From: a virus
Taxonomy: Duplodnaviria > Caudoviricetes
Strand: one strand, 5' to 3'
Length of the DNA: 64,000 bases
Virus record (IMG/VR): IMGVR_UViG_3300028833_000142
Coordinates: 11,927-75,926 of that record
Of the stretch, positions 1,726-41,172 are shown in pieces (position 1 is the stretch's first letter; each line of letters begins with the position of its first letter). The position numbers and the translations under genes are program-made. The notes below the pieces were generated by a model. It saw nothing but the letters and a program-made list of their open reading frames with translations. It had not been told where the DNA came from and did no database searches.

Positions 1726-3000
1726 ATGACAATAGCTAGTGAAATACAAAGAATAAAAACAAATATTGCAAATGCTTATATCTCTTGCGATAATAAAGGG
1801 GCAACAATGCCTAGTACGCAAAATAGTGCTAATTTAGCTAATTGTGTTAATAGTATACCAACAGGCATTACCCCAACAGGTACAATATCAATTACCAATA
1901 ACGGTGTGTACGATGTTACAAATTATGCAAGTGCAAATGTAAATATTAGTAGTGGTGGTGGCGATACAGTAGGTATAACAAGAGAAGTATCTTCAAATGG
2001 GGTGTTTCAAATGCCTGAAAATGACTTTACTTTTAGTTTGCCTAGTAATGCTACGGATGTGGGTGGCGGTGCAATGTCCTATGCTTTCGCCAGTTGCAGA
2101 AATTTAACAAGCGTAGACTTAAGCAGTCTGACTACAGTGAGTGGTGTTAATGCAATGAACTATGCTTTCTTCGCTTGCACAGGTTTAACAAGCGTAGACT
2201 TAAGCAGTCTGACTACAATAAGTGGTAGTAGTGCAATGAACTATACTTTCTACAATTGCAGAAATTTAACAAGCGTAGACTTAAGCAGTCTGACTACAGT
2301 AAGTGGTAGTCAAGCAATGTACTATGCTTTCTACGCTTGCGCAGGTTTAACAAGCGTAGACTTAAGCAGTCTGACTACAGTAAGTGGTAGTAATACAATG
2401 TACCGTGCTTTCTATAGTTGCACGAGTTTAACAAGCGTAGACTTAAGCAGTCTGACTACAGTGAGTGGTAGTGGCGGTGCAATAGCCTATGCTTTCAGCG
2501 GTTGTACAGGTTTAACAAGCGTAGACTTAAGCAGTCTGACTACAGTGAGTGGTAATGGTGCAATGAACTATACTTTCCAAAATTGCACAGGTTTAACAAG
2601 CGTATTATTCACTAATCTTGAAATAATCGGAGCAAATAGTTGGTTAGTTGACTACGGACATTTTACACAATGTTTCTATAATTGTAATAATCTAACTTCT
2701 ATAACATTCCCTAAGCTTGAAAAAATCTATTGCACAGGTGGAACGTCAACAAGTTACGGTACTTTTGCAAATAATAATAAAGTGCAAAAAATGTATTTTC
2801 CCAAACTTGACACAATTACTTACGGTAACGGTGCAAATACATCAAATCAGAACGCTTGCAAAAATGTATTCTATGGCTGTTCAGCTCTAACAGAACTACA
2901 TTTTGGGGCAGCAAATCAAGCTGCTATTGAAGCGAGTCCTGGTTATTCAACTGCTTGGGGTAGGGGTGCAGGCGATGTAACAATTTACTTTGATTTATAA
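1726..3000 (+). CDS. BspA-type leucine-rich-repeat protein, probable tail adhesin
   Basis: 27-aa repeats AFxxCxxLTSVDLSSLTTVSG. N-terminus MTIASEIQRIKTNIANAY is typical of phage fibre-associated LRR proteins. Confidence 0.8.
   Translation: MTIASEIQRIKTNIANAYISCDNKGATMPSTQNSANLANCVNSIPTGITPTGTISITNNGVYDVTNYASANVNISSGGGDTVGITREVSSNGVFQMPENDFTFSLPSNATDVGGGAMSYAFASCRNLTSVDLSSLTTVSGVNAMNYAFFACTGLTSVDLSSLTTISGSSAMNYTFYNCRNLTSVDLSSLTTVSGSQAMYYAFYACAGLTSVDLSSLTTVSGSNTMYRAFYSCTSLTSVDLSSLTTVSGSGGAIAYAFSGCTGLTSVDLSSLTTVSGNGAMNYTFQNCTGLTSVLFTNLEIIGANSWLVDYGHFTQCFYNCNNLTSITFPKLEKIYCTGGTSTSYGTFANNNKVQKMYFPKLDTITYGNGANTSNQNACKNVFYGCSALTELHFGAANQAAIEASPGYSTAWGRGAGDVTIYFDL
2104..2603 (+). repeat. In-frame tandem repeat, 81-nt unit, 6 full copies plus 1 partial
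   Basis: Identical 33-mer TTAACAAGCGTAGACTTAAGCAGTCTGACTACA at 2104, 2185, 2266, 2347, 2428 and 2512; partial copy at 2593. Confidence 0.95.
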
Positions 3001-3011
3001 GGAGAAAATTT

Positions 3012-3371
3012 ATGATAACAACAACATTAACAAAATTAACAGCAAGTACAGGAATGGTACTAACAAACGGCAAAAACTTTACTCATTCAGTATTACTAAG
3101 AGAAGATGAAAGTCCTGAAGATTGGTCTGAAATTACAGAAGAATATTTTAGAAAACTTCAAGCACAAATGACTCCTAGAGAATTTTTGCTTGCTTTAATT
3201 AACAAAGGTAAAACAAGAGAACAAATTGAAGCAATTATAAATTCTGATGATAAAATTTGGGCAGAATTAACAGGCGCAACAGCAATTATACGTGCTAATC
3301 CATTACTTGATTTGTTGTGTAGCAAATTAGATTTAACACCTAATGATTTAGATAAAATGTTTGGATTATAA
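3012..3371 (+). CDS. Tail-fibre-associated / assembly-like small protein
   Basis: GGAG RBS; directly follows the adhesin; LTASTGMVLTNG and WSEIT motifs are common in such proteins. Confidence 0.5.
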   Translation: MITTTLTKLTASTGMVLTNGKNFTHSVLLREDESPEDWSEITEEYFRKLQAQMTPREFLLALINKGKTREQIEAIINSDDKIWAELTGATAIIRANPLLDLLCSKLDLTPNDLDKMFGL

Positions 3372-11488: not shown

Positions 11489-12118
11489 ATGAGAAGAAAA
11501 AAAATTAATTTTACACCGTTAATTTTATTGATTTTTCTTATTTTTATGTCATTTAAAGTGGTAAAATTAGAAAGAGAAATTGAAAATTTAAAGAGTAATG
11601 AAACACTTATTTTATTACAACTTGAAACAGAAGAAAAAGACTTAAATAGAGTACACACAAAGGTTTTAGATTTGGATAGTATAATAAACAAATATGCTTC
11701 TAAATATAATGTAGAACCCAATTTGGTAAAAGCTGTGGTCAAAGTTGAAAGCAGTAATAACCCGAACGCTACAAGTAAAGCGGGAGCCATAGGTTTAGGG
11801 CAATTAACTTTATCTACTGCAAAAGCAATGGGGGTAAACCCATATAACCCAGAGGATAATATAAAAGGCACAGTGAAATATTTAGATTATCTTAATAAAA
11901 AATTTAATGGTGATACTAAAAAAGTTTTAGCTTCATATAATGCAGGACCAAATGCAGTTCAAAAACACAACGGCATACCACCATATAAAGAAACACAGAA
12001 TTACGTTAAAAAAGTAGAACAAGAAAAGGCTAAACTCGATGCTAACACAAAAACAGATGGAACAGTTGGAACAACAGACCCAAATATTACTGTTAGAGTA
12101 TATAAAACAACTAAATAA
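11489..12118 (+). CDS. Lytic transglycosylase (SLT) with N-terminal membrane anchor
   Basis: AVVKVESSNNPNATSKAGAIGLGQL, LASYNAG and ETQNYV motifs. Confidence 0.92.
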   Translation: MRRKKINFTPLILLIFLIFMSFKVVKLEREIENLKSNETLILLQLETEEKDLNRVHTKVLDLDSIINKYASKYNVEPNLVKAVVKVESSNNPNATSKAGAIGLGQLTLSTAKAMGVNPYNPEDNIKGTVKYLDYLNKKFNGDTKKVLASYNAGPNAVQKHNGIPPYKETQNYVKKVEQEKAKLDANTKTDGTVGTTDPNITVRVYKTTK

Positions 12119-22364: not shown

Positions 22365-25300
22365 ATGTCAAATTATATATCTTTTCATAATCATGATTGT
22401 TTAGGTAGTTTACTTGATAGCTCTTTAAAGTTGAAAGACTTGGTAAATTGGGCTAAGGCTAATAATATGAAGGCTGTAGGTGTTACTAACCATGGTTACT
22501 TAACTTCGTCTATAAAACTATTAGACTTATGTAAAAAGGCAGATATTAAACCGCTAATAGGAATAGAGTTTTATGTTACAGAAAATAAAGTAGATGGAAA
22601 CGGCAAAAAAATAAGAGACAATCACCATTTATGTGCAATTGCTAAAAATTCTAACGGGTATCATAATTTAATCAAATTACATAATTTAAGCTTTCGAGAA
22701 GAGAGGTTTTATTATGATGGTCGTATAACTTTAGAAGATTTAGAGAAGCATAAAGAAGATTTAATTATAACTTCTGCTTGTATAGGTAGTGTTCTTGGGA
22801 AACAATTTACCTCTGGTAATTTAGATGTAGCTGAAAACAAGCTTGTTACTCTTTATAATATGTTTGGTGAAGATTTTTACCTTGAACTTCAAAACCACAA
22901 TTCTTTTAATAAAGAATGGCAAAAACAGCAAGAGGACTATAATGAATGGTTAATAAAAATGGGAAAAAAATACGGTATAAAATGTATAGTGCAACAAGAT
23001 AGCCATTATTATAGAAAGGAAGATTGGAAGGCTCATCAAGTTCTATTGTGTAAAAATACTGGTTCCAAATTAAGTAAGCCTACGTTTCAATTTGACTCTC
23101 ATGAATATTATTTAAAAAATGAAGCAGAAATGCTCGAAACTTTTGCTAAATACCCACTTCCTTTTATAGAAGGGTGTTTTAAACACACTAGCGAAATTGC
23201 TGATAAAGTAGAGGTTTTCAATATAGAGAATGAACATTATTCTATGCCTACTTTTGGTGAAAAAAAAGAAGTAAGTCGTAAATTGAGGGATTTAGTAAAG
23301 GCTGGCTTTATTAAGAGATTTGGTTCATTAAATTATAAAAAAGAATATATCGACAGAATAAAATACGAACTTGAAGTTATAGAAAAAATGAATATGCAAG
23401 ATTATATATATTTACTTTGGGATATATATGAATTTGCTAAAAAAAATGGTATATATAGAGCAGTAGGTCGTGGGTCAATGGGGGCTAGTTTAGTTCTTTA
23501 TTGTCTTGATATTGTGCAAATAAACCCTATGGAATACAATTTAATGTTTGAAAGATTTCTTTCACCCGACCGAATTTCGTGCTGCGATTGTGATTCAGAT
23601 TGGGCACCAGACGATAAAGCAAGAATAGAGCAGTATTTGAGGGATAAATATGGCGAAGACAAGGTGTGTGGAATAGCTACGTATGTTGAACTTACTGCAA
23701 AAAGTTCCTTTAAAGCCGTTACAAGTGCAATGGAAGTTCCATTTGCGTTGGCTAATAAAATAACTTCTTTAATGGACCCTAATTTAACTCTTGAAGAAAA
23801 TATAGAGGACAATGAAGCCTTACAAAAAGAGATAAAAAACAACAATTTAGAAGAAGTAATCAATATATCAAAGGTGCTAGAGGGCACTTTCTCTGCTCAG
23901 TCTGTTCACCCTTGTGCTAATGTTATATTTCCAGATAATTTCGATAATTTATGTCCTGTTATATCTGTAAAAGACCCAAGTGGCAAAAAAGATAGAGTTT
24001 TTGTTACTTCATACGATATGAAAGAAGTAGACGGTAAACTTAAATTTTTAAAAATGGATGAGTTGGGACTTGCTTGTCTACAAACAATAAGAGAAACAGA
24101 TAAATTAATAACCGAAAGGAATGGTATAAAGATAAATTTTCACAATTTACCACTAGATGACAAAAAGGTTTATGAAACATTGGGGAATGGTGAAAGTTTT
24201 GGCGTATTTCAAATGGAAAGCCAAATGTTTAAGTCTTTATTAAAGTCGGTTAAACCAAAGAATTTAGAAGATTTAACAGTTATAACTGCTATCGGTAGAC
24301 CTTCAGCTTTACAAAGTGGAATGACAGAGCAATACAAATTAATAAGAAACGGTAAAGCAGAACCAGAATATATTATTCCAGAGTTAGAAGAGCCATTAAA
24401 AGATACTTATGGATTAATGATATTTCAAGAAACAATGATGTTGACATTAAAATACTATGCAGGGTTCTCAAATTCTCAAGCAGATTTTGCAAGAAAAATA
24501 TGTGGTAAAAAATTAAAGGATAAAATTCCAGAATTAAAAGAATTGTATTTGGAAGGCTGTAAAAAGATGAATAGGGATTTAGAACAAGCAGAGGATTTAT
24601 TCGAGAAAATACAACAATTTGCTTCATATTCTTTTAGTAAGATACATGGTGTTCTTTATAGCTATATGTCTTATGCTACAGCTTGGTACAAGGTCAACTA
24701 TCCCCTCGAATATATGTGTGCTTTATTAAATGCCAATTCAGATGACCTAGATAAACTCAACCTATATATAAACGAGTGTTATCGCTTAGGCATACGTGTT
24801 ACACCCCCCGATGTTAACGACTCAGGTAAAGATTTCCAAATAAACGAAAGTGGTGAACTTGTGTTCGGTTTATCTGCTATTAAAGGTTTGGGTAAAGCCG
24901 TTGTAAACGATATTATAAGAGCAAGAAGTAATAAAAAATTTATATCAATTGAAGATTTTATAGAAAGGGTAAACAAAGCAGATAAAGGTAGTATACAAGC
25001 ACTTTTACGGGTTGGTGCTTTTAATAAATTGGTAAAATACCCTAAACGTTGGGATTTACTATGTGATTATATCAACGATGCTAAAAACTCTAAATATTAT
25101 ATAGATACAGAAAATTTAGAGCAAGCGGTATACCACGTGGTTGGCACCAAAGCAGGTAAAAAGAGTGATAAATATATAGAAATCCAAGAAGAAAAACGAG
25201 GTTTAAAATCAAGTAGACAAGATAAATTATATAGAGAAGAACTAAACAAAAAACAAGATGACCTTTTAGAGTATTATATTGATGTAGTTAAAAGACAATT

Positions 25301-25970
25301 TTTAAAAGCTACAACATATAAACCTGCTGAAAAAATACAAAACGAACAAGAACTTATGGGGTTTAATATATCTACAAATCCTTATAAACGTTGGGATTTA
25401 TTTAAGAAATACTATACACGTGCCTTAGAAGGCGGTATACCGTATGTTGAATTAAATGAATTAGTTGATGATTTTGAAAAATTTGTTGACTTAAAAAGCT
25501 TTAATACCGTTGGTTTACTTACAGATGTTAAGGAATTAAAAACTAAAAAAGGTCAAAAAATGGCTAAATTAACTTTCGAGTATTTTGGTAGTAAAACAAC
25601 CATAACAGTATTCCCAAATGATTGGGAGAATGATTTAGAATTTAAACTTCAAAAAGGTAATATGGTATCTATAACTGGATATTTGGTAGAAACAAATAAA
25701 CAATATAGTGATGACGATTACGAAATCAGATTTACTTCTATGCGTCAATTAAATGTTTTAATAAACGAAAACAATAAATGTATTATAGACATAAAGAACA
25801 AAAATGTTGAAGATGTAAATTTTGCTGTTAAGAAATTAGCATATAGTGAAAAATCTGATAATTTGCCAGTTGAAAGAGTTGTAATATATAAGAAAGATGA
25901 TAAAATGCTTGTATTACAAGGTGTTTTATGGATAAACAATCCAGATAAACTTTTAAATTATTTGAGGTAA
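22365..25970 (+). CDS. dnaE: DNA polymerase III alpha subunit (family C)
   Basis: PHP domain (HNHD, TNHG, DSHY), GRGSMGASLV, FQMES, YSFSKIHG, YKVNYPLEY, PPDVN, GLSAIKGLG, OB fold. Confidence 0.95.
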   Translation: MSNYISFHNHDCLGSLLDSSLKLKDLVNWAKANNMKAVGVTNHGYLTSSIKLLDLCKKADIKPLIGIEFYVTENKVDGNGKKIRDNHHLCAIAKNSNGYHNLIKLHNLSFREERFYYDGRITLEDLEKHKEDLIITSACIGSVLGKQFTSGNLDVAENKLVTLYNMFGEDFYLELQNHNSFNKEWQKQQEDYNEWLIKMGKKYGIKCIVQQDSHYYRKEDWKAHQVLLCKNTGSKLSKPTFQFDSHEYYLKNEAEMLETFAKYPLPFIEGCFKHTSEIADKVEVFNIENEHYSMPTFGEKKEVSRKLRDLVKAGFIKRFGSLNYKKEYIDRIKYELEVIEKMNMQDYIYLLWDIYEFAKKNGIYRAVGRGSMGASLVLYCLDIVQINPMEYNLMFERFLSPDRISCCDCDSDWAPDDKARIEQYLRDKYGEDKVCGIATYVELTAKSSFKAVTSAMEVPFALANKITSLMDPNLTLEENIEDNEALQKEIKNNNLEEVINISKVLEGTFSAQSVHPCANVIFPDNFDNLCPVISVKDPSGKKDRVFVTSYDMKEVDGKLKFLKMDELGLACLQTIRETDKLITERNGIKINFHNLPLDDKKVYETLGNGESFGVFQMESQMFKSLLKSVKPKNLEDLTVITAIGRPSALQSGMTEQYKLIRNGKAEPEYIIPELEEPLKDTYGLMIFQETMMLTLKYYAGFSNSQADFARKICGKKLKDKIPELKELYLEGCKKMNRDLEQAEDLFEKIQQFASYSFSKIHGVLYSYMSYATAWYKVNYPLEYMCALLNANSDDLDKLNLYINECYRLGIRVTPPDVNDSGKDFQINESGELVFGLSAIKGLGKAVVNDIIRARSNKKFISIEDFIERVNKADKGSIQALLRVGAFNKLVKYPKRWDLLCDYINDAKNSKYYIDTENLEQAVYHVVGTKAGKKSDKYIEIQEEKRGLKSSRQDKLYREELNKKQDDLLEYYIDVVKRQFLKATTYKPAEKIQNEQELMGFNISTNPYKRWDLFKKYYTRALEGGIPYVELNELVDDFEKFVDLKSFNTVGLLTDVKELKTKKGQKMAKLTFEYFGSKTTITVFPNDWENDLEFKLQKGNMVSITGYLVETNKQYSDDDYEIRFTSMRQLNVLINENNKCIIDIKNKNVEDVNFAVKKLAYSEKSDNLPVERVVIYKKDDKMLVLQGVLWINNPDKLLNYLR

Positions 25971-28284: not shown

Positions 28285-31200
28285 ATGCAGACATTAGAAA
28301 GAGAAAACGGTGTAAAAGAGGTAAATATGGAAGAAAATAATAAAAAAGAGTTTATAAAAAATTACTTAAATTCTCAATCTTATCAAAAAGATTTTGTCAA
28401 TTTTATGGTAAATATGTTAGATAAATACGGGGTTGAAATATTTAATCTAAATGGTATTGGTGAACAATTAGATATGAATAAAGCAATTAAGAAAGCTATG
28501 TCTAGTTCAACAATGGCAGATACTTCTGTAGACCCTAATTCTAATACCAATATTATTACAAGTGGTGCAGTATTTTCCGAAGTGGGGAAAGCACATTCTT
28601 TAATCCATAATCATTATAGAGTTTGGAAATTTATGAAAAAATCACATGATTTAGAATATGCGAATGATTTAATGGAAAGAAAGTTAACTGGTCAAATTTA
28701 TATACATGATTTTAGTTCATTTTTACCGTATTCTTACTATGGAAAAACAGTTATAACTGTTAAATATCGTGGTCAAATTCTCTATTTGAATATGGAAGAC
28801 TTGTTTAATATGTTTGAAAATAGTATTGAAGTTCTTCCTGATAGAGAAACAATTGATTTATCTAATGTTAATATTTATGTTTTAGATAAAGGAAATAAGT
28901 TTGTTAAATTAACAAGAGTTTTACGCCATAAATCACATTGTGGGCTGTTAAAATTTGAAACAAAGAATGGAAGAACAACAATAGTAACAGAAGACCACCC
29001 AGTAATTTTAGAAAATGGAGAAGAAAAACAGGCTTCTGCAATCAATATAGGCGATAGATTGATGATTTCAGATTGTTTGTTTGATATATTCGATAGTGGT
29101 TGTCATGATATTAGTAGAACAAAATATCTTGTTGGTTTTACTTTGGGTGATGGTCATTTGATATTGGGTGGAACAAGAGGAAGTAATCAATTAAGCATAA
29201 AACAGAAAGGTTTAGAAAATCATAAAGTGTACCAATATATAAAGGAAGAAAGTCCAACAACGGCTAATAATTTACACGATGGTGGTAACGGTACACAACG
29301 AGTTAGTTTTGGTACAAAGTGCTGGGTATGTAAAAATGCACAAATAAATCATGGAGCACCGAATAAAGTATTCCCTAAAGATGTACTAAATTGGGATAAA
29401 AATGAAGTTTTAAGTTTTATAGCAGGACTTATTGATTCAGATGGTTGTGTTAATTCACAGAACGGTGTTGTAGATGTTCGTGTAACTGCCTTTTCAGCAG
29501 TTCAACAAATGGCTGAAATTTTGAGAAGTTTAGGTTTTGAACGTGTAAGAACTTCTTTAATGGATACACAAAAGAGAGAGTATCAATTCGGTTCCAATTA
29601 TGACATGTATAGGGTTTCTTTCGTTGTAAATGACAAAAACATTGATTTAGTTAATTTTTCTGATAAATTGCAAAAATACAAGGATGTTGTGCTGAAAGAG
29701 CGTGGGAAAGACGGTAGGTTTGAAACAAACGAGGTTTTGAAAATCCGTTCATTTGAACAAGACTATGTTTATGATATTACTACCGAGACAGGAACTTTCA
29801 GTTCACAAGGGTTAATACAACATAACTGTTTTAATTTTGACCCAGTACATTTTGCTTTATTAGGTATACCTAAAGAGCTAGATGGTAAAGGTGAAAGTTT
29901 ACCACCACAACATATGGAATCTTTCTTTGGTATTTTGGAAGATATATTACCAATTTTCGCTAAAAATTTAGCTGGGGCTTGCGGAATAGCCACATTATTT
30001 CCAGTTTTATCTATATATGTACAAAAAGCAATAAAAGAAGGATATAAAATAGATAAAATACAATTAAAAGATGAACAAGCTGTATGGGATTTTTTAAGAG
30101 TAAAATTGACATCTTTATTATATAATCTTAATAGACCATCCAGAGATGGTTCACAAAGTTTATTTACTAACGTAAGTATTATGTCACCGTCTTTCTTAGA
30201 AGAAGTTTGTGCTAATACTGTTGTGGTATTTAAAAATGATGTGGTTATTACAGCCGATGTAGATATTACTTTAAAAATACAAGATTTATGGGTTGATGTG
30301 TTTAACGAAGAAAGTAAGAGAAGACTATTTACCTTCCCAGTTCAAACATTGTCTATAGCAACAGTAGAAGACCCAGAAACAGGTAAACAAAAAATAGTAG
30401 ATGAAGATTTTTATAACAAAATGATGGCTAAAAACTCTAAGTTGGCATCACAAAATGTATATGCTGGTGATAGTTCAACGCTAAGCTCCTGCTGCCGTTT
30501 GCGTTCAGATAAATCTAAAATTTTTACAAATTCATTAGGTGGTTCTACTTCAAATATAGGTTCGTTTGGTGTATGTACAATAAATCTTGCTACTTTAGGT
30601 TTAAGATATAAAGACAACTTAGATAAATTTTACAAAGAACTTGAAAAAAATATTCGTTATGCACAAGAAGTTAATAGATGTAAGATGAATTTCATTAAAA
30701 AAGATATAAAACGTGGTGCATTGCCTATGTATACATTGGGTTTTGTATCTTTAGATAAACAATATGCTACACTCGGAATTAACGGTTTATATGAATGTTG
30801 TGTGGAATTAGGCAAGGATTATAGAGAATTAAAAAATCGTAGCTTTGTAGAAGAATTACTACAATTTATTAATAAAATAAATGACGATATAGGCGAAAAT
30901 ACTTTAAAACATATTGTTAATTGTGAACAAGTGCCCGCCGAAAATGTTGCTGTAAAACTTGCAAAAATTGATAATTTGCTTGGTTATAATACTAATTACG
31001 AAATTTATGCAAATCAATTTATTCCATTAGATATAACTACAGAAGGTGGTATATTGGACAGGGTATCAATACAAGGTGAGTTAGATAAATATTTTAGCGG
31101 TGGTAGTATTTTACACGCAAATTTAGACCAAGAATGTGATGAACAGTCATTTATAGACCTTGGCAAATATGCAATTGAAAACGGTGTCAGATATTTTGGT

Positions 31201-31398
31201 ATTAATTATGTTACTTGTAAATGTCATAATTGTGAAGGTACATTTGTTGGTAAATTCGATAAATGTCCTCATTGTGGCTCAGAAGATTTTGAGGCTTGGT
31301 GTCGTATTATAGGATATATGGTACCTATTTCTAATTATAATGCGGTTAGAAGAAAAAAATTTAACGATAGAATTTTTTATAAAAGTATCAATAATTAG
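28285..31398 (+). CDS. nrdD: Anaerobic (class III) ribonucleoside-triphosphate reductase with intein
   Basis: IYIHD, SCCRL, GSFGVCTINL, EQVPAE, GGSILH, C-terminal CxxC...CxxC and RIIGY glycyl-radical motif. Confidence 0.93.
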   Translation: MQTLERENGVKEVNMEENNKKEFIKNYLNSQSYQKDFVNFMVNMLDKYGVEIFNLNGIGEQLDMNKAIKKAMSSSTMADTSVDPNSNTNIITSGAVFSEVGKAHSLIHNHYRVWKFMKKSHDLEYANDLMERKLTGQIYIHDFSSFLPYSYYGKTVITVKYRGQILYLNMEDLFNMFENSIEVLPDRETIDLSNVNIYVLDKGNKFVKLTRVLRHKSHCGLLKFETKNGRTTIVTEDHPVILENGEEKQASAINIGDRLMISDCLFDIFDSGCHDISRTKYLVGFTLGDGHLILGGTRGSNQLSIKQKGLENHKVYQYIKEESPTTANNLHDGGNGTQRVSFGTKCWVCKNAQINHGAPNKVFPKDVLNWDKNEVLSFIAGLIDSDGCVNSQNGVVDVRVTAFSAVQQMAEILRSLGFERVRTSLMDTQKREYQFGSNYDMYRVSFVVNDKNIDLVNFSDKLQKYKDVVLKERGKDGRFETNEVLKIRSFEQDYVYDITTETGTFSSQGLIQHNCFNFDPVHFALLGIPKELDGKGESLPPQHMESFFGILEDILPIFAKNLAGACGIATLFPVLSIYVQKAIKEGYKIDKIQLKDEQAVWDFLRVKLTSLLYNLNRPSRDGSQSLFTNVSIMSPSFLEEVCANTVVVFKNDVVITADVDITLKIQDLWVDVFNEESKRRLFTFPVQTLSIATVEDPETGKQKIVDEDFYNKMMAKNSKLASQNVYAGDSSTLSSCCRLRSDKSKIFTNSLGGSTSNIGSFGVCTINLATLGLRYKDNLDKFYKELEKNIRYAQEVNRCKMNFIKKDIKRGALPMYTLGFVSLDKQYATLGINGLYECCVELGKDYRELKNRSFVEELLQFINKINDDIGENTLKHIVNCEQVPAENVAVKLAKIDNLLGYNTNYEIYANQFIPLDITTEGGILDRVSIQGELDKYFSGGSILHANLDQECDEQSFIDLGKYAIENGVRYFGINYVTCKCHNCEGTFVGKFDKCPHCGSEDFEAWCRIIGYMVPISNYNAVRRKKFNDRIFYKSINN
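28732..29826 (+). mobile_element. Intein with LAGLIDADG homing endonuclease (365 aa)
   Basis: Starts SYYGKTVITV after LPY; block B VTEDHPV; LVGFTLGDG and FIAGLIDSDG; ends YVYDITTETGTFSSQGLIQHN before CFNFD. Confidence 0.9.
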
Positions 31399-31499
31399 TA
31401 TAAAATATATATTCAGACCTTTGCATTTAGCAGAGGTCTATTTATATCTCTTGACATCAAAATATTTTTATACTAAAATAATAAGACATGGAGGTAAGA

Positions 31500-31988
31500 A
31501 TGCAAAAAAATTTACAAATAGCCCATATAGAATACTCTATAACAACTAAATCACTTGATATATTCACAATTGGTTGTGATGGTCATTGTACTGGTTGTTG
31601 CAACCCAGAAATAAAAAGTTGGGATTTAAAAGGATTAAGTGTATTTGAAGTATTAGACAAAGTTATGGAATTAAATTCTCGATACGATAATCTTATCGAA
31701 AGAGTAATAGTTGTGGGTGGAGACCCAGTTGACGCATACTCTAAATATCCTTTTGATATGAAAACATTATTAAAAGGTATTAAATCGGTTACAGGTAAAC
31801 CTCTGTATCTATTCACTCGTCACGGTTTACCACTTATCCCACAAGACTTAAAAGACCTTGTAGATTATATAAAAAGCGGCGAATATAAATCAGAGTTAAC
31901 TTGTGATGACAATATACAATACGGTATAAAATTAGCTACTAGCAATCAGGTAATATATAGAAAGGAAAATGACGAATGGATAAAATAA
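31500..31988 (+). CDS. nrdG: Anaerobic RNR activating radical SAM protein
   Basis: GCDGHCTGCCNPE (CX3CX2C), GGDP, DYIKSGEY, TSNQ. Confidence 0.88.
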   Translation: MQKNLQIAHIEYSITTKSLDIFTIGCDGHCTGCCNPEIKSWDLKGLSVFEVLDKVMELNSRYDNLIERVIVVGGDPVDAYSKYPFDMKTLLKGIKSVTGKPLYLFTRHGLPLIPQDLKDLVDYIKSGEYKSELTCDDNIQYGIKLATSNQVIYRKENDEWIK

Positions 31989-33919: not shown

Positions 33920-33990
33920 CTTTAATATACTTGACATCGGTATACCTTTGTGGTATACTGGTGTTAGTTACAAAAGGAAAGGTATGTAAA

Positions 33991-35133
33991 ATGGAAGAAA
34001 CAAAAGAATTGCAAAAAGAAGTTAAAAAAACATTAGATTTTAAGGATTATGTTACACCTCAAGGGTACAAATATTCTATTTATGATGATAAAAACATCAA
34101 AATAGTAAAATCCGAGAAATATAACAGTATCTTTAATAAAAAAACTGGTATGTTTTTGAGATGGGGTGAAACACCACAGGTTGACCCGAAGTTTTCGCCA
34201 GTGGGATGTGAGATTTTAGACATAGAAGTCTCGACAATATGTCACGGAATTAATAATCAACCTTGCCCGTGGTGTTATAAAAGTAATTTTGCAGTCGGTG
34301 AAAACATGTCATTTGAAACCTATAAACAAATTATAGATAAAATGCCATTATCTTTAAATTCTGTAGCAATAGGAATTGGCAGTATAGACGCTAATCCAGA
34401 CCTCTGGAAAATAATGGAATATACCAGAGAAAAAGGTATAGTTCCCAATATCACTATAAACGGTGCAAGATTAACAGATGAAATCGTAGAAAAATTGGTT
34501 AAATATTGCGGTGCAGTTAGCGTATCTTGTTATTCACCTAAAGATGTTTGCTATGATGCCGTTAAAAGATTGACAGATGCTGGTTTAAAACAGGTTAACA
34601 TACATCAGTTAATTGCACATGAAACAGTGGATAAATGTTTAGAAGTTATAAACGATAAACTAACAGACTCAAGATTAGAAAAATTAAACGCTATAGTATT
34701 CTTAACATTAAAACCAAAAGGTAAAAGAAATACGTTGACGGTGCCAACAATGGATGATTATAGAAAAGTAATTAAATCAGCTATTGATAAAAAGGTTGGT
34801 ATAGGTTCTGATAGTTGTGGTAGTGGTGCACTTTATAGAGTTTATAAAGAACTAGGTTTAGAAAATATGGTTAAAGATGTCGTAGAAAGTTGTGAGTCTT
34901 TTGGTTTGTTTTCTTCTTATATAAACGTAAGAAATGAATATTTTCCCTGCTCTTTTACAGAAAATGAAGGTGAATGGGAACAGGGTATAAATGTATTAAA
35001 TTGTGAAGATTTTTTAAGTGATGTTTGGTTTAATGAAAAATTAGAAAAATATCGTAAAGCTTCAATTTGTTCGGCAGATTGTAATGGTTGCCGTAAATGT
35101 TTAACATTTAAAGATGTGAATGTAGAGGTGTAA
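33991..35133 (+). CDS. Radical SAM protein with SPASM/Twitch-like C-terminus
   Basis: CHGINNQPCPWCYK (CX7CX2C), NITING, YFPCSF and CSADCNGCRKC; own promoter upstream. Confidence 0.85.
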   Translation: MEETKELQKEVKKTLDFKDYVTPQGYKYSIYDDKNIKIVKSEKYNSIFNKKTGMFLRWGETPQVDPKFSPVGCEILDIEVSTICHGINNQPCPWCYKSNFAVGENMSFETYKQIIDKMPLSLNSVAIGIGSIDANPDLWKIMEYTREKGIVPNITINGARLTDEIVEKLVKYCGAVSVSCYSPKDVCYDAVKRLTDAGLKQVNIHQLIAHETVDKCLEVINDKLTDSRLEKLNAIVFLTLKPKGKRNTLTVPTMDDYRKVIKSAIDKKVGIGSDSCGSGALYRVYKELGLENMVKDVVESCESFGLFSSYINVRNEYFPCSFTENEGEWEQGINVLNCEDFLSDVWFNEKLEKYRKASICSADCNGCRKCLTFKDVNVEV

Positions 35134-35134
35134 T

Positions 35135-35530
35135 ATGAAAGTTAGAAATGGATTTGTAAGTAACAGTAGTTCAAGTTCTTTTATTGTACGCTTAGACAAG
35201 CCAATAGAAGACTATACGTATGAAGAATTTATGGATATTTGTGGTATAACAAAATCTTATGAAAATGAAAATTGTAAAGATGAATGGGGTGATACAATGC
35301 CGTTTACTTATGGGGATTGTGTTAATGCCTTATGGAATGATTTAAAGGATAAATATGCCAAAGTGTTAAGCGACTGGTTTAAAGAAGAATACTGTGTGGA
35401 TAATCTTGGACCTACGGAATATAAGGTTTCTTATGGTAGTGAAGATAGTGACTGGGAAAAGGGTAGATATATGGAGTGGGAATTTATGCCACACCTCAAA
35501 ATAACAAAAGATACAATTAACATGCATTAA
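35135..35530 (+). CDS. MKxRxGFVSNSSSSSF-family protein 1
   Basis: N-terminus MKVRNGFVSNSSSSSFIV. Confidence 0.85.
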   Translation: MKVRNGFVSNSSSSSFIVRLDKPIEDYTYEEFMDICGITKSYENENCKDEWGDTMPFTYGDCVNALWNDLKDKYAKVLSDWFKEEYCVDNLGPTEYKVSYGSEDSDWEKGRYMEWEFMPHLKITKDTINMH

Positions 35531-35545
35531 AGAAAGGATGTATAT

Positions 35546-35980
35546 ATGAAATTACGTACAGGTTTTGTAAGCAACAGTTCATCATCGTCATTTATTATTT
35601 GGTATAAAGACGATTTAACAAAAGAAAATTTAATAAAAGCTATGGGTGTAGACAAAAATAATCCGCTTTATTTCTTTGCGGACGATTTGAGTGACTATGT
35701 AATAGCAGAAAGTAAAAGCTCTTATAACAAACCAATAGAGACATTTGAAGAGTTTGCAAAGGATTATGGGTTTATTGATTGTGATGATGAAAACCCAGAT
35801 TTAACTGAAGCTATAGAAGAGCTTCCAGATGAATACAATAGGTTTAAAAAAGGGTTCAAAATGTTGAGTTTATGCCCTTCATATAACGAAGCTGATAGTG
35901 CTATTGAATATTATTTAGGTAATATGAATGATAAAGTTTTAGCCGATACAGACACTATTTATATGGAAGTAGGTGAATAA
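35546..35980 (+). CDS. MKxRxGFVSNSSSSSF-family protein 2
   Basis: N-terminus MKLRTGFVSNSSSSSFII. Confidence 0.85.
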   Translation: MKLRTGFVSNSSSSSFIIWYKDDLTKENLIKAMGVDKNNPLYFFADDLSDYVIAESKSSYNKPIETFEEFAKDYGFIDCDDENPDLTEAIEELPDEYNRFKKGFKMLSLCPSYNEADSAIEYYLGNMNDKVLADTDTIYMEVGE

Positions 35981-35983
35981 ATT

Positions 35984-36481
35984 ATGAAAATACGAAATGG
36001 TTTTGTAAGTAATAGTAGTAGCAGTAGCTTCGTAATATATAATCCACAAAAACAAGCACAAGTAATGGACATTATAAATAATGTCGGTTGTTATGATTTT
36101 TATGAACTAGACGGTGTTTTATATACATCTTTCATATCAGACTGCTCTGATGCATATAGTATAATTTCTAGGTTAGCCGATGAAAGTTATGATGGCTCTC
36201 ACGGTACACCTTATGATGAAGCTGATTATGTAGAATTTGAAGGTGATAGAGGAGTTGATAGTGTATATATATTAAAATCTAAATGTAAAGATGTGGTTGA
36301 AGCTGAAAATAGAATAAAAGATTTATTATATGAGTATGTTAAAAACTATATAAGTTGTAACAGTATATATTCAGAAGATTATATAATGAAAGTCAATGCA
36401 TTAAAAGAAGATTCACCATATTTTTTAAATAGATGTTGTGAAATTGTAGGATACTGTGAAAAAGAAGATTGGATGGAATAA
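35984..36481 (+). CDS. MKxRxGFVSNSSSSSF-family protein 3
   Basis: N-terminus MKIRNGFVSNSSSSSFVI. Confidence 0.85.
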   Translation: MKIRNGFVSNSSSSSFVIYNPQKQAQVMDIINNVGCYDFYELDGVLYTSFISDCSDAYSIISRLADESYDGSHGTPYDEADYVEFEGDRGVDSVYILKSKCKDVVEAENRIKDLLYEYVKNYISCNSIYSEDYIMKVNALKEDSPYFLNRCCEIVGYCEKEDWME

Positions 36482-36634
36482 TGAAACTAGAAGATTTTAT
36501 ATGCAAGGTCGATATTTTAAAATATGAAATAGAGGGTTGTAAAAATTTGATAGAATTTTATTCTAATAAAAAAGAAAATCTTGAAAAAGAATTGCATAAT
36601 TTATTGAAACAAAATTTAACAAGCGAGGTAAACA

Positions 36635-37249
36635 ATGAAAATTAGAAAAGGCTTTGTAAGCAATAGTTCAAGTAGTAGTTTTGTATGTGATGTATGTGGC
36701 TATACCGAAAGTGGTTGGGATATGAGTTTAGAAGAAGCAGAAATGTATGAGTGCGAAAACGGACATACATTTTGTGAAGGACATATTATAACACCAACAA
36801 AAGAACAACTAATTGAATACGCTAAAAGAATTTTAAATAATGAAAAAATTAGTGCGGTTAATTTTTCAGAATGGTTAGATAATAAAGATTATAATTCAAT
36901 TGAAGATGTAGATAGCTTAAGTGATATAGAAGATTTGTCCAGAGAATATGGTTGGGGTGAAGGTGGAAGATATGCTATACCCGAATGTTTTTGCCCCTTG
37001 TGCAATTTTGAAGAATTAAGTCAAGCAGATGCAAGAGAATATCTATATATAACAACAGGTATATTACCATCTACTGTATTTGAAGAAGTCAAAAAAATAA
37101 ATAAAAGACGTAAAAAATTAAGGGATAGTGAATATGTTTCTTATGTTTTACAAAAACTAAATAAAAACGAAACAGAATTGCTTCAAGAAATAGATGAGAG
37201 ATTTAATCACTCTTATAAAAAATTTAAGATATTTATACGTGGATTATAA
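36635..37249 (+). CDS. MKxRxGFVSNSSSSSF-family protein 4, probably zinc-binding
   Basis: N-terminus MKIRKGFVSNSSSSSFVCDVC; CENGHTFC and CPLC. Confidence 0.85.
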   Translation: MKIRKGFVSNSSSSSFVCDVCGYTESGWDMSLEEAEMYECENGHTFCEGHIITPTKEQLIEYAKRILNNEKISAVNFSEWLDNKDYNSIEDVDSLSDIEDLSREYGWGEGGRYAIPECFCPLCNFEELSQADAREYLYITTGILPSTVFEEVKKINKRRKKLRDSEYVSYVLQKLNKNETELLQEIDERFNHSYKKFKIFIRGL

Positions 37250-37312
37250 TCTATTGACAAATAAAAATATATGTGATAAAATTTTCATGTAGTTAAGAAA
37301 AGGAGAATAAAA

Positions 37313-37564: not shown

Positions 37565-37606
37565 TATGAGGGGGTTATACCCCTCTTTAAGTTTTAAGGT
37601 GTAGTT

Positions 37607-38955: not shown

Positions 38956-40275
38956 ATGAACAAAGTTTTAGAAAATGAATTAGTAGAAAAAATACTCAGT
39001 GATAAATCAAGTAATATCAACCAATTATTAAATCAAAGAATAGATGATATTACTAATCGAGTAGATAAAAAAATTACTGAAACAGAACAAATTTTAACAG
39101 AAAAAATTTCACGAGTAAGCGATAAATTAAAAGGGAAACCGATAAAGGTTAACTTGGGTTCTGTTAAGAAACCAGATAATAAAATTCTTCATGAAAAATT
39201 TGATACAATTATCAAAGTTTTAGAAAGCACAAACCGTATAGAAAAACATATAATGTTAGTTGGACCTTGTGGTTCTGGTAAAAGTTCATTATGTTCTGAT
39301 GTTGCTAAGGCTTTAAAGGTAGATTTTTACCCTATGAGCGTAGGGTTACAGACTACAAAATCAGATTTATTGGGCTTTATTAACGCTAAAGGTGAATATA
39401 TAACTACACCTATACGTCAAGCATTTGAAAACGGTGGTTTGCTCTTACTTGATGAATTTGATGCTACAAATCCAAGTACAGTAACTATTTTGAACTCAAT
39501 GTTAGCTAATAATATATGTAGTTTCCCAGATAAAATTGTATCTAAACATAAAAACTTTATTTGTATTGTAGCTTGTAATACCTATGGTAAAGGTGCAGAT
39601 ATATCTTATGTTGGTAGAAATAGGCTTGATGCTTCGACACTAGATAGGTTTATCGTTATAAATGTAGATTATGATGAAGTTCTTGAGGGGCATTTAACTA
39701 ATAATGATGAATGGTTCAAATGTATTAAAAAAATGCGTTCTAATATAAATAAATATGGTGTAAAAACTATTATTTCACCAAGAGCTTCTATGCAAGGTGC
39801 CGATTTATTAGAACATGGATTTTCGTTTGAAGATGTTGTAAATATGGTTGTTTTAAAGGGTGTAAGTGAAGATGTAAGAAATAAAATTTTAAACGGTGTT
39901 ACTTACGGCAAAAAGAAAAAAGAAGTTAAAAAATCTGATAGTGTAAAAATAACATTTTCAGTAGACAGAACTCATGCTTTTGTAGAGTATGACCAAGATT
40001 TTTCAATGATTACGGAATTAGACTGGGAAGGTAAATATAGCATTTTTATTTCAAAGGATAAAGAATATATATCTAGTTTAGATTCAAATGTTAATAAAAT
40101 ATTCTTAAATTGTGGCGATAATAAATTTGATAAACCAGTAAATTTAACAAAATTAGTTAATGATATTAAAGAAAACATTAATAGTTATAATGTTTCAGAC
40201 ATTAGCGTTTCCATAATCTTATGTTCAGAACAGCCAGAGTTAAATCGTACATATATATTGGAGTGTGATAGTTAA
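38956..40275 (+). CDS. MoxR/CbbQ-type AAA+ ATPase
   Basis: GPCGSGKS, LLLDEFD, ACNT, LDASTLDRF and SPRAS motifs. Confidence 0.88.
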   Translation: MNKVLENELVEKILSDKSSNINQLLNQRIDDITNRVDKKITETEQILTEKISRVSDKLKGKPIKVNLGSVKKPDNKILHEKFDTIIKVLESTNRIEKHIMLVGPCGSGKSSLCSDVAKALKVDFYPMSVGLQTTKSDLLGFINAKGEYITTPIRQAFENGGLLLLDEFDATNPSTVTILNSMLANNICSFPDKIVSKHKNFICIVACNTYGKGADISYVGRNRLDASTLDRFIVINVDYDEVLEGHLTNNDEWFKCIKKMRSNINKYGVKTIISPRASMQGADLLEHGFSFEDVVNMVVLKGVSEDVRNKILNGVTYGKKKKEVKKSDSVKITFSVDRTHAFVEYDQDFSMITELDWEGKYSIFISKDKEYISSLDSNVNKIFLNCGDNKFDKPVNLTKLVNDIKENINSYNVSDISVSIILCSEQPELNRTYILECDS

Positions 40276-41172
40276 ATGGTTAGGCTATATACCTTTAAAG
40301 ATAATAATAGAAGTATAAAATGTGCTGATTTTAACGGATTAGTAGACCAATATAATTTTATCTCTGATGAATTTAAAGAAAAAAAATATAGAACCGTGCA
40401 AATGCAAATTGACGAACGTAGAGATGACTGGTGGGGTAAGCACAATATAGAAGAAACCTTACAAGGAATGTTTTATGGTTTTGAAAATTCTACGGAATAT
40501 TTTTTAGAGAATATACAAAGTAGTAAATATTTTAACGAAAAAGATAATGGTATACAAATGTCTGAACAAGGTAATATATATGATATGGGTAGTTTTGTAT
40601 CAGGTATACCTGAATGTTGTTTAGATTTCGGTTTACCAACACCGAATCCATATGTTAAAATTATGGTTGATTTACCATTTTCTTGCGGTTATTCTGAAAA
40701 CCAAATATATAATCGTGGTGTAGCTATATTGGCTTTATTGCAAACATTAATCATTTCAAAATGTATAGTAGATTTATATATGTTTGAATTTAATCAACAA
40801 AGTGATATGCTCGTTATGTATACAAATAAAATTGATATGAATTGTATATCAATAGCAGATTTAGCGTTTTTATGTTCACCAGAGTATTTCAGAAGAATAG
40901 GTTTTGTAACTACGGAATGTATACGACAAAGAAGTAGCGAATGGGGTTGTGGCAACAGTACCTTAACTAATTTTATAAAAGAAAAAATAAAAAAAGATAA
41001 AATATTTTTTATAGGTGGTAGTTACACAGACGGTGAATTGGCAAATAATTTATCAACACCAGATAAAGCCATAGAATGTTTATTAACAAAATTTAATAAA
41101 TTTTGTACAGAAAATAAATTAAATTTGAATTTACAGATGAAAAAGAATGGAGAAATAAATGTTAGAAATTAA
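40276..41172 (+). CDS. vWA-like partner of the AAA+ ATPase
   Basis: VKIMVDLPFSCG...RGVAILAL resembles a degenerate MIDAS/vWA fold; abuts the MoxR-type gene. Confidence 0.55.
   Translation: MVRLYTFKDNNRSIKCADFNGLVDQYNFISDEFKEKKYRTVQMQIDERRDDWWGKHNIEETLQGMFYGFENSTEYFLENIQSSKYFNEKDNGIQMSEQGNIYDMGSFVSGIPECCLDFGLPTPNPYVKIMVDLPFSCGYSENQIYNRGVAILALLQTLIISKCIVDLYMFEFNQQSDMLVMYTNKIDMNCISIADLAFLCSPEYFRRIGFVTTECIRQRSSEWGCGNSTLTNFIKEKIKKDKIFFIGGSYTDGELANNLSTPDKAIECLLTKFNKFCTENKLNLNLQMKKNGEINVRN

Follow-up and report, generated by a model that had tools for sequence, protein, structure and literature searches.

A stretch of viral DNA of 64,000 nucleotides (Duplodnaviria; Caudoviricetes; positions 11,927 to 75,926 of IMG/VR record IMGVR_UViG_3300028833_000142; the window) carries a putative operon at positions 33991–37249. 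The operon encodes a radical S-adenosylmethionine (SAM) enzyme and four proteins, A to D, which share a near-invariant segment of 16 residues at the extreme N-terminus (the tag). On a variable set of early phage proteins, the tag is probably the place at which the radical-SAM enzyme docks and reacts, as judged from sequence comparison and predicted models. Four lines of evidence argue for this reading: a two-way linkage between enzyme and tag across genomes, a covariation of tag residue 9 with the enzyme clade, the unrelated bodies that carry the tag, and the predicted freedom of tag residues 1–11. An initial annotation of the window, made from the sequence alone, had taken the tag for a substrate of the enzyme or a sequence that it recognizes. 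The core of this proposal is strongly supported by comparative evidence, and the proposal as a whole in part. The tag is not a fully detachable leader; its SSSF part is predicted to form the first strand of the body.

The shared tag and its linkage to the enzyme

The N-termini of the four proteins follow the pattern MK[VLI]R[NTK]GFVSNSSSSSF (MKVRNGFVSNSSSSSF in protein A), with 14 of the 16 positions identical, which bears out the near-invariance first described. A six-frame regular-expression scan detects the motif nowhere else in the 64-kb window. The Ser codons of the tag are differing mixes of AGY and TCN across the four genes, and the DNA identity among these genes drops at once on either side of the tag. 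Conservation therefore acts on the peptide, as the initial annotation had concluded from the codons, and DNA-level conservation or recent duplication of the tag is rejected.

The same conservation is observed beyond the window. In a set of 314 distinct tags, K2, R4, G6, F7, V8, S11 and F16 are conserved at 96–100%; the search pattern behind this set required R4 or F7 and did not force the other conserved positions. Residues S9, N10, S11, S12 and S15 are near-invariant. A profile search of 5.8 billion proteins returned 450 matches at E ≤ 0.01, with the motif at residues 7–16 in nearly all of them and a Pfam domain in none. The tag heads hundreds of predicted phage proteins, usually in arrays of 2–13 genes.

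Two known short motifs resemble the tag and were rejected. The glycyl-radical motif, RVxG[FWY], is C-terminal, while the R4-x-G6-F7 of the tag has the wrong spacing and is N-terminal; a separate NrdG-type activase and its NrdD are encoded upstream (28285–31988), apart from the tag system. The type IV prepilin leader is short and basic, ends in a Gly before a Phe, and precedes a hydrophobic helix of some 20 residues that carries Glu at +5. The MKxRxG|F of the tag is similar, but it is followed by VSNSSSSSF and a soluble acidic domain, with neither a Glu at +5 nor a hydrophobic helix.

The initial annotation had suggested a motif search combined with a count of co-occurrence with the enzyme, and the outcome agrees with its proposal. 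A pattern scan of IMG/VR yielded at least 597 stretches, and 59 loci were defined among the matches listed. The enzyme family lies within 10 kb of the tag in 44 of these 59 loci, at 28–52% identity, against a baseline of 173 enzyme-bearing records among 50,697 phage records. About a dozen of the enzyme-positive loci come from near-identical phages, and the number of independent lineages is nearer 33. Arrays in the 59 loci comprise as many as 12 tagged genes. In 39 of 41 loci, the tagged gene closest to the enzyme lies downstream of it on the same strand, and the gap has a median of 644 bp. When the neighbourhoods of the listed loci were clustered all against all, the enzyme was the one other gene family found to recur across lineages; MoxR or vWA genes were not found to recur beside the arrays. 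Among the 15 listed loci without an enzyme nearby, three carry it elsewhere on the contig, including the sole record estimated to be at least 90% (100%) complete. The other 12 enzyme-less records are estimated to be 6–88% complete.

The linkage also holds in the reverse direction. All four isolated phages with the enzyme that were tested (Klebsiella phage KLB23, iPHaGe-KPN-11i, Cronobacter phage leB and Vibrio phage D479; by group, one Slopekvirus, two Pseudotevenvirus and the Vibrio phage) also carry 2–5 tagged genes. Three of these genomes have local peculiarities. The enzyme of Cronobacter phage vB_CsaM_leB is annotated as two open reading frames (ORFs), a split gene, and the two tagged genes are kept (L069, 2953–4283). 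A homing endonuclease gene abuts the enzyme gene in Vibrio phage D479 (L068, 5929–7840). The second tagged protein of Klebsiella phage iPHaGe-KPN-11i (L064, 1501–1965) has a normal tag and is annotated as a 'head-tail adaptor'. Its residues 75–146 match phrog_132 (E 2.6e-9).

Residue 9 of the tag follows the clade of the enzyme. Ser9 is present in 123 of 123 tags from the 31 sources with the main-clade enzyme (the window and 30 loci). A divergent enzyme clade of about 30% identity and different Cys spacing accompanies Thr9 in 39 of 39 tags from 13 loci. This partition would be the expected outcome if residue 9 sits in the active site of the enzyme.

Linkage and covariation are also compatible with a tag that serves as a docking peptide only. 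The tagged proteins would then be interchangeable adaptor or specificity subunits, or regulators, which bring host proteins, nucleic acids or small molecules to the enzyme, and the enzyme would modify that target. The pairing of one enzyme with 2–13 diverse bodies is in keeping with such a role, and the strict N-terminal position and the strand-forming SSSF(I/V)(I/V) would suit β-strand addition. We nevertheless regard docking alone as unlikely. Near-invariance of small polar residues, as in the tag, is less typical of a docking strand than of a reaction site. The solved enzymes closest to this one act on a bound peptide or a small alcohol, and no indication of a third-party substrate was observed.

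Several observations weigh against a tag that is docked on and modified by the enzyme. The tagged genes of T4-like phages are separated from the enzyme by about 20 kb and stand on either side of a 748-aa vWA protein (phrog_2426). Some arrays have no enzyme in reach, for example G002 (88% complete) and G005 (79% complete). On a 26-kb contig of a metagenome-assembled genome (MAG), 13 tagged genes occupy 7.5 kb (L071, 10019–17449), and no enzyme is present in the 20 kb fetched. Of the 13 Thr9 loci, 12 come from near-identical phages, and the partition between Ser9 and Thr9 may represent a single evolutionary event. Furthermore, no recognition element (RRE, PqqD-like) of the kind found with peptides that are made on ribosomes and modified post-translationally (RiPPs) was detected among the Pfam matches of the enzyme or its neighbours; a divergent recognition domain within the conserved 75-residue N-terminal extension of the enzyme is possible.

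The L071 array is the largest enzyme-less one seen here. In 185,579 prokaryotic genomes, 71 stretches match the tag pattern, and the 11 confirmed loci are all on MAG contigs. These contigs may be binned phage DNA.

The enzyme-less arrays and the distant tagged genes of T4-like phages would be accommodated if the tag were independent of the enzyme. It would then be a sorting or handling signal, either for capsid packaging for injection or for a host protease, chaperone or secretion factor, and the enzyme would merely travel in the same mobile early-gene module. Unrelated proteins with a short common N-terminal tag are the generally known pattern of the T4 internal proteins, and the phrog_132 match of one T4-like tagged body points in the same direction. 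This alternative is improbable given the co-occurrence in all four isolated phage genomes and in the one 100%-complete IMG/VR record among those rechecked, and given that the residue at position 9 tracks the enzyme clade. The genomic context is also non-structural: the operon lies among NrdD, NrdG, dUTPase and Dam behind a host-type promoter. The T4-type capsid-targeting sequence is an N-terminal tag on virion proteins that ends in the prohead-protease site (L/I)xE. Residues 1–16 of the tag contain neither Glu nor any other acidic residue and thus no such site, and a capsid-targeting sequence is not expected to be near-invariant across phages so different.

Bodies of the tagged proteins

The initial annotation described the remainders of the four proteins as dissimilar and acidic, and both descriptions are confirmed. 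The isoelectric points range from 4.2 to 4.9. The tag-less bodies, compared pairwise with hhalign, give a probability of at most 1.1% for every pair, and phmmer searches with them retrieve relatives that fall into four separate groups. The B body, for instance, has 27 relatives in the pool used and is unrelated to A, C and D. Among Pfam, NCBIfam and PADLOC, no family matches any of the four tagged proteins; only phrog_7397, of unknown function, was matched (E 2e-7 for protein A). A sequence search of the PDB with the tag-family profile gives chance matches only. A tblastn search of the phage collection with ORF A returned nothing, probably owing to low-complexity masking and divergent bodies, and pattern-based scans replaced tblastn for finding tagged genes.

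Proteins of the A subfamily have conserved EYxVxYG and MExEF motifs and a C-terminal His. Protein D comprises a zinc-ribbon-like CxxC...CPxC module and a subsequent helical domain, and C18, C120, P121 and C123 are invariant in the D alignment. The zinc-binding protein of the initial annotation corresponds to D with this zinc-ribbon-like module. The D body is the most widespread type. The tag-less D body, searched against 1.84 billion representatives, matches 1071 clusters at E ≤ 1e-3, and in nearly all of the best 150 clusters the match begins at target residue 17–18. Among 140 newly returned D-body proteins, 120 have the strict tag and 13 a one-residue variant; the seven without a tag are N-terminally truncated or have other N-termini. 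In these alignments, the D body appears almost only with the tag and at the same offset.

In one short protein, P0222 (178 aa; L081, 198–734), the first 80 or so residues of an enzyme of the divergent clade, Cys motif included, are joined to the C-terminal half of a body of the D type. The protein occurs on a single 1-kb contig, is probably a deletion or an assembly chimera, and was not taken as evidence.

AlphaFold2 (AF2) models of A and D differ in architecture. The model of A (alignment of 11 sequences; mean predicted local distance difference test, pLDDT, 86.6) has an α/β domain with its first strand at residues 13–19, and residues 1–11 score below 50. The model of D (alignment of 61 sequences; mean pLDDT 90.8) has a zinc-ribbon-like sheet and helical bundles with its first strand at residues 13–17, and the first ten residues average 52. 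In both models, SSSF and two hydrophobic residues are predicted as the first β-strand of the body, and residues 1–11 are floppy. The tag would consequently have two parts in these models: a free conserved head, MKxRxGFVSNS, and the segment SSSF with two hydrophobic residues, which docks as the first strand. No fold match reaches a meaningful level. The best Foldseek hits in the PDB have E 0.94 for A and 0.68 for D, the best VIA hits have Z 3.2 for A (root-mean-square deviation, rmsd, 3.7; 73 aligned) and 5.8 for D (rmsd 4.1; 73 aligned, in the helical tail only), and the best hit of either model in BFVD has E 0.21.

The predicted strand bears on a further reading, in which the tag would be all that is still recognizable, as an active-site or structural motif, of one ancient fold, and the radical-SAM gene would be a neighbour with another job. 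The initial annotation had itself named an integral strand of a shared fold as evidence against its proposal. The strand part is seen in both models, phrog_7397 aligns past the tag with both A and D to about residue 86, and single-linkage clustering with low-complexity masking joins many tagged proteins. The bodies of A and D differ in architecture, however, with an α/β domain in the former and a zinc ribbon and helical bundles in the latter, and hhalign detects no relation among the four bodies. Moreover, residues 1–11, the most conserved part of the tag, lie outside either predicted fold. A single ancient fold would also leave the linkage and the covariation with the enzyme unexplained, and we consider it highly improbable.

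The radical-SAM enzyme and the proposed reaction

The enzyme matches the Pfam family Radical_SAM (PF04055) with 32.9 bits against a cut-off of 29.5, and phrog_7293 with E 1e-88. Its Cys motif is C84-x7-C92-x2-C95, which agrees with the non-canonical CX7CX2C of the initial annotation. A three-Cys motif of this kind, canonically CX3CX2C, binds the 4Fe-4S cluster that cleaves SAM in the superfamily. The canonical spacing is present at that place in most of the 29 relatives aligned, and the alignment points to a lineage-specific insertion of four residues in the first spacer.

Four Cys residues past the core (C276, C301, C320 and C370) are invariant in the 30-sequence alignment. In a profile search of PDB sequences, the enzyme retrieves BtrN (E 1.7e-5), SkfB (1.4e-4) and SuiB (5.6e-3). 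The enzyme profile aligns Cys on Cys with the auxiliary-cluster (twitch) region of BtrN (domain E 0.026). Of these three, SkfB and SuiB are peptide-modifying enzymes, and BtrN dehydrogenates an alcohol. The SPASM domain (PF13186) has a seven-Cys motif, CX9-15GX4C ... CX2CX5CX3C ... C, with two auxiliary clusters; PF13186 has no match in the window enzyme at E ≤ 1. The nearest ESM Atlas clusters of the enzyme are 83–100% viral, 25–33% of their members carry PF13186, and the SuiB match is weak. The C-terminal domain of the enzyme fits a twitch-like domain with one putative auxiliary cluster. In this respect, the Cys-rich 'SPASM/Twitch-like' tail of the initial annotation, with its four conserved Cys, fits a twitch-like domain better than a full seven-Cys SPASM domain. 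The 13 NCBIfam matches at E ≤ 1 are weak, cover the core only and are all peptide or cofactor maturases; no anSME or FxsB model is among them. Two other matches were set aside. Designed-PPR proteins that rank above BtrN in the profile search are repeat artefacts, and a PADLOC pVip (viperin) match (E 2.5e-5) spans only the generic radical-SAM core.

These features can be assembled into a mechanism, in which binding, tag-directed catalysis, the reacting site and what the clients do are all inferred. The window would hold one copy of a widespread two-part phage system, expressed early from a host-type promoter. Its clients would be a variable set of unrelated small acidic proteins with a strictly N-terminal tag. 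The enzyme would bind the first, free part of the tag (MKxRxGFV[S/T]NS), which extends away from the folded body. A 5´-deoxyadenosyl radical would then cause a covalent change in the tag, most likely at or beside residue 9, and the modified clients would act as matured early phage effectors.

Two chemistries rank highest as candidates, both by analogy with known enzymes. The likeness to BtrN and the invariant Ser/Thr make oxidation of the hydroxyl-bearing side chain attractive; the side chain of Ser/Thr9 would be converted to a carbonyl, as by anSME and BtrN. The F-x-S triplet in the tag suggests a triceptide-type cyclophane between Phe7 and Ser9 as the alternative. A more far-reaching version of the mechanism is tentative, and we hold it with low confidence. 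In this version, the enzyme would equip a universal N-terminal handle with a group that is either reactive or rigidifying, for example a formylglycine-type carbonyl at Ser/Thr9 or a cyclophane between Phe7 and Ser9, and would thereby 'arm' dozens of unrelated early proteins. This would be a general virus-encoded radical maturation of folded proteins, which might serve to capture host targets covalently or to inhibit them, defence systems for instance.

Genomic setting and known systems

The initial annotation listed a radical-SAM gene and four ORFs that start at 35135, 35546, 35984 and 36635, and its coordinates agree with ours (Table 1). All five ORFs are present, on the + strand; the list omitted an untagged ORF of 58 aa between the third and fourth tagged genes. 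This small ORF overlaps the 3´ end of ORF C and the 5´ start of ORF D. A gap of 1 nt separates the stop codon of the enzyme from the start codon of ORF A. A syntenic relative, L082 (a 99-kb metagenomic contig), has an identical gene order, with a 54-aa gene called at the place of the small ORF. It additionally contains a 326-aa gene on the opposite strand directly upstream of the enzyme gene (2261–3241, minus strand), which has no counterpart there in the window and may be a mobile insertion.

Table 1. Coordinates of the operon and of neighbouring features in the window
Feature	Position	Strand	Details
DNA polymerase III alpha subunit, further upstream	22365–25970	+	full-length; PHP, finger, HhH and OB domains
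NrdD, anaerobic ribonucleotide reductase	28285–31398	+	1037 aa; intein with LAGLIDADG homing endonuclease (Pfam Intein_splicing, Hom_end)
NrdG-type activase	31488–31988		follows NrdD
Sigma-70-like promoter before the operon	33931–33959	+	TTGACA-17 nt-TATACT, upstream TG; 11 of 12 consensus matches
Radical-SAM enzyme gene	33991–35133	+	380 aa
Tagged protein A	35135–35530	+	131 aa; pI 4.5
16-residue tag of A	35135–35182	+	motif scan, codon and peptide alignment
Tagged protein B	35546–35980	+	144 aa; pI 4.2
16-residue tag of B	35546–35593	+	motif scan, codon and peptide alignment
Tagged protein C	35984–36481	+	165 aa; pI 4.3
16-residue tag of C	35984–36031	+	motif scan, codon and peptide alignment
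Untagged small ORF between C and D	36469–36645	+	58 aa; TTG start
Tagged protein D	36635–37249	+	204 aa; pI 4.9
16-residue tag of D	36635–36682	+	motif scan, codon and peptide alignment
Next promoter-like site, just past ORF D	37254–37282	+	consensus match; downstream operon boundary
Terminator-like hairpin	37568–37585
MoxR-like AAA_5 ATPase, then directly DUF7192 protein	38956–41172	+	439 aa and 298 aa; weak bpMoxR and PADLOC IetA matches
pI, isoelectric point.

The single promoter of the initial annotation corresponds to the sigma-70-like site before the enzyme gene, and the next such site follows ORF D. These positions fit a single operon from 33991 to 37249; the promoter calls are consensus matches only, as shuffled sequence would be expected to contain equally many sites. 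NrdD, NrdG, a TSCPD protein and a thioredoxin-like protein are encoded upstream of the operon in this order. A metallophosphoesterase, the MoxR-like AAA_5 ATPase (which starts 1.7 kb downstream of the tagged array), the DUF7192 protein, a dUTPase and a Dam methylase are encoded downstream. The GC content of the window is approximately 28%, and the source record is a 76-kb viral fragment estimated to be 47% complete. With these genes, the region represents the early, nucleotide-metabolism section in the genome of a large phage that infects an anaerobe.

Full-text literature searches returned no description of the tag motif or of a phage system of radical-SAM enzyme and tag. Pfam, NCBIfam and PADLOC contain none either, and the initial statement that the motif has no characterised function holds. 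The known substrates of radical-SAM maturases are short peptides (RiPPs) and a few dedicated proteins, among them sulfatases and quinohemoprotein amine dehydrogenase. In the present case, a portable, near-invariant N-terminal handle of 16 residues connects hundreds of unrelated folded proteins to a single viral enzyme family. The phages concerned are large and include both T4-like phages of Klebsiella and jumbo phages that are uncultured. Modification of the tag, if it occurs, would represent a new post-translational chemistry on proteins and a new layer of phage early-gene biology, one that would cover many 'hypothetical' small acidic proteins together. Tag and enzyme might then also be transferable as a pair for use in protein engineering. 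Direct testing is possible in Klebsiella and Enterobacter phages that are cultured and tractable and carry both parts.

The system shares features with several known ones and is identical to none of those compared. The T4 internal proteins are likewise unrelated small phage proteins with a common short N-terminal peptide, encoded in variable arrays. In contrast to these, the present tag is linked to a radical-SAM enzyme, is near-invariant across very different phages and is located in an early, nucleotide-metabolism region.

In anSME/AtsB and in BtrN, a radical-SAM enzyme acts on a hydroxyl-bearing carbon. The sulfatase maturase anSME acts on a short motif of a full-length protein, and the present tag is built around an invariant Ser/Thr. 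The C-terminal domain of the window enzyme aligns with the twitch domain of BtrN, including the Cys ligands. Unlike in the anSME system, the (C/S)-x-(P/A)-x-R substrate motif is not found in the tag and no client is a sulfatase. The window enzyme has just four conserved Cys residues, compared with two auxiliary clusters in anSME.

The RiPP maturases of the SkfB, SuiB/StrB and CteB types resemble the system in layout. One radical-SAM enzyme with an auxiliary-cluster domain adjoins several genes whose products share a short segment, and SkfB and SuiB are among the nearest solved sequences to the window enzyme. The clients here, however, are folded proteins of 80–260 aa (131–204 aa in the window) rather than short peptides, and the shared segment comprises 16 residues at the extreme N-terminus and lies partly in the fold. 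In addition, the system is viral, with no RRE or PqqD-like domain detected and no recurring protease or exporter nearby.

The nearest system in print is that of Kaur et al. 2020 (PMC7159879), in which radical-SAM/SPASM genes lie beside variable proteins with a conserved C-terminal FxSxx in vWA-MoxR conflict systems. The motif is C-terminal there, whereas the corresponding tag residues 7–11 (F-V-S-N-S) are N-terminal here, and neither a match to an FxsB model nor a metallopeptidase partner is present. Both systems pair a radical-SAM enzyme with highly variable proteins that share a short end. As in the FxsB/vWA-MoxR arrangement, a MoxR-like AAA_5 ATPase is encoded 1.7 kb downstream in the window, and in T4-like phages tagged genes border a vWA protein on both sides. 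The tag also contains the triplet F7-V8-S9, as in the substrates of FxsB and the triceptide synthases, and by this analogy a Phe-Ser cyclophane is a candidate chemistry for the tag.

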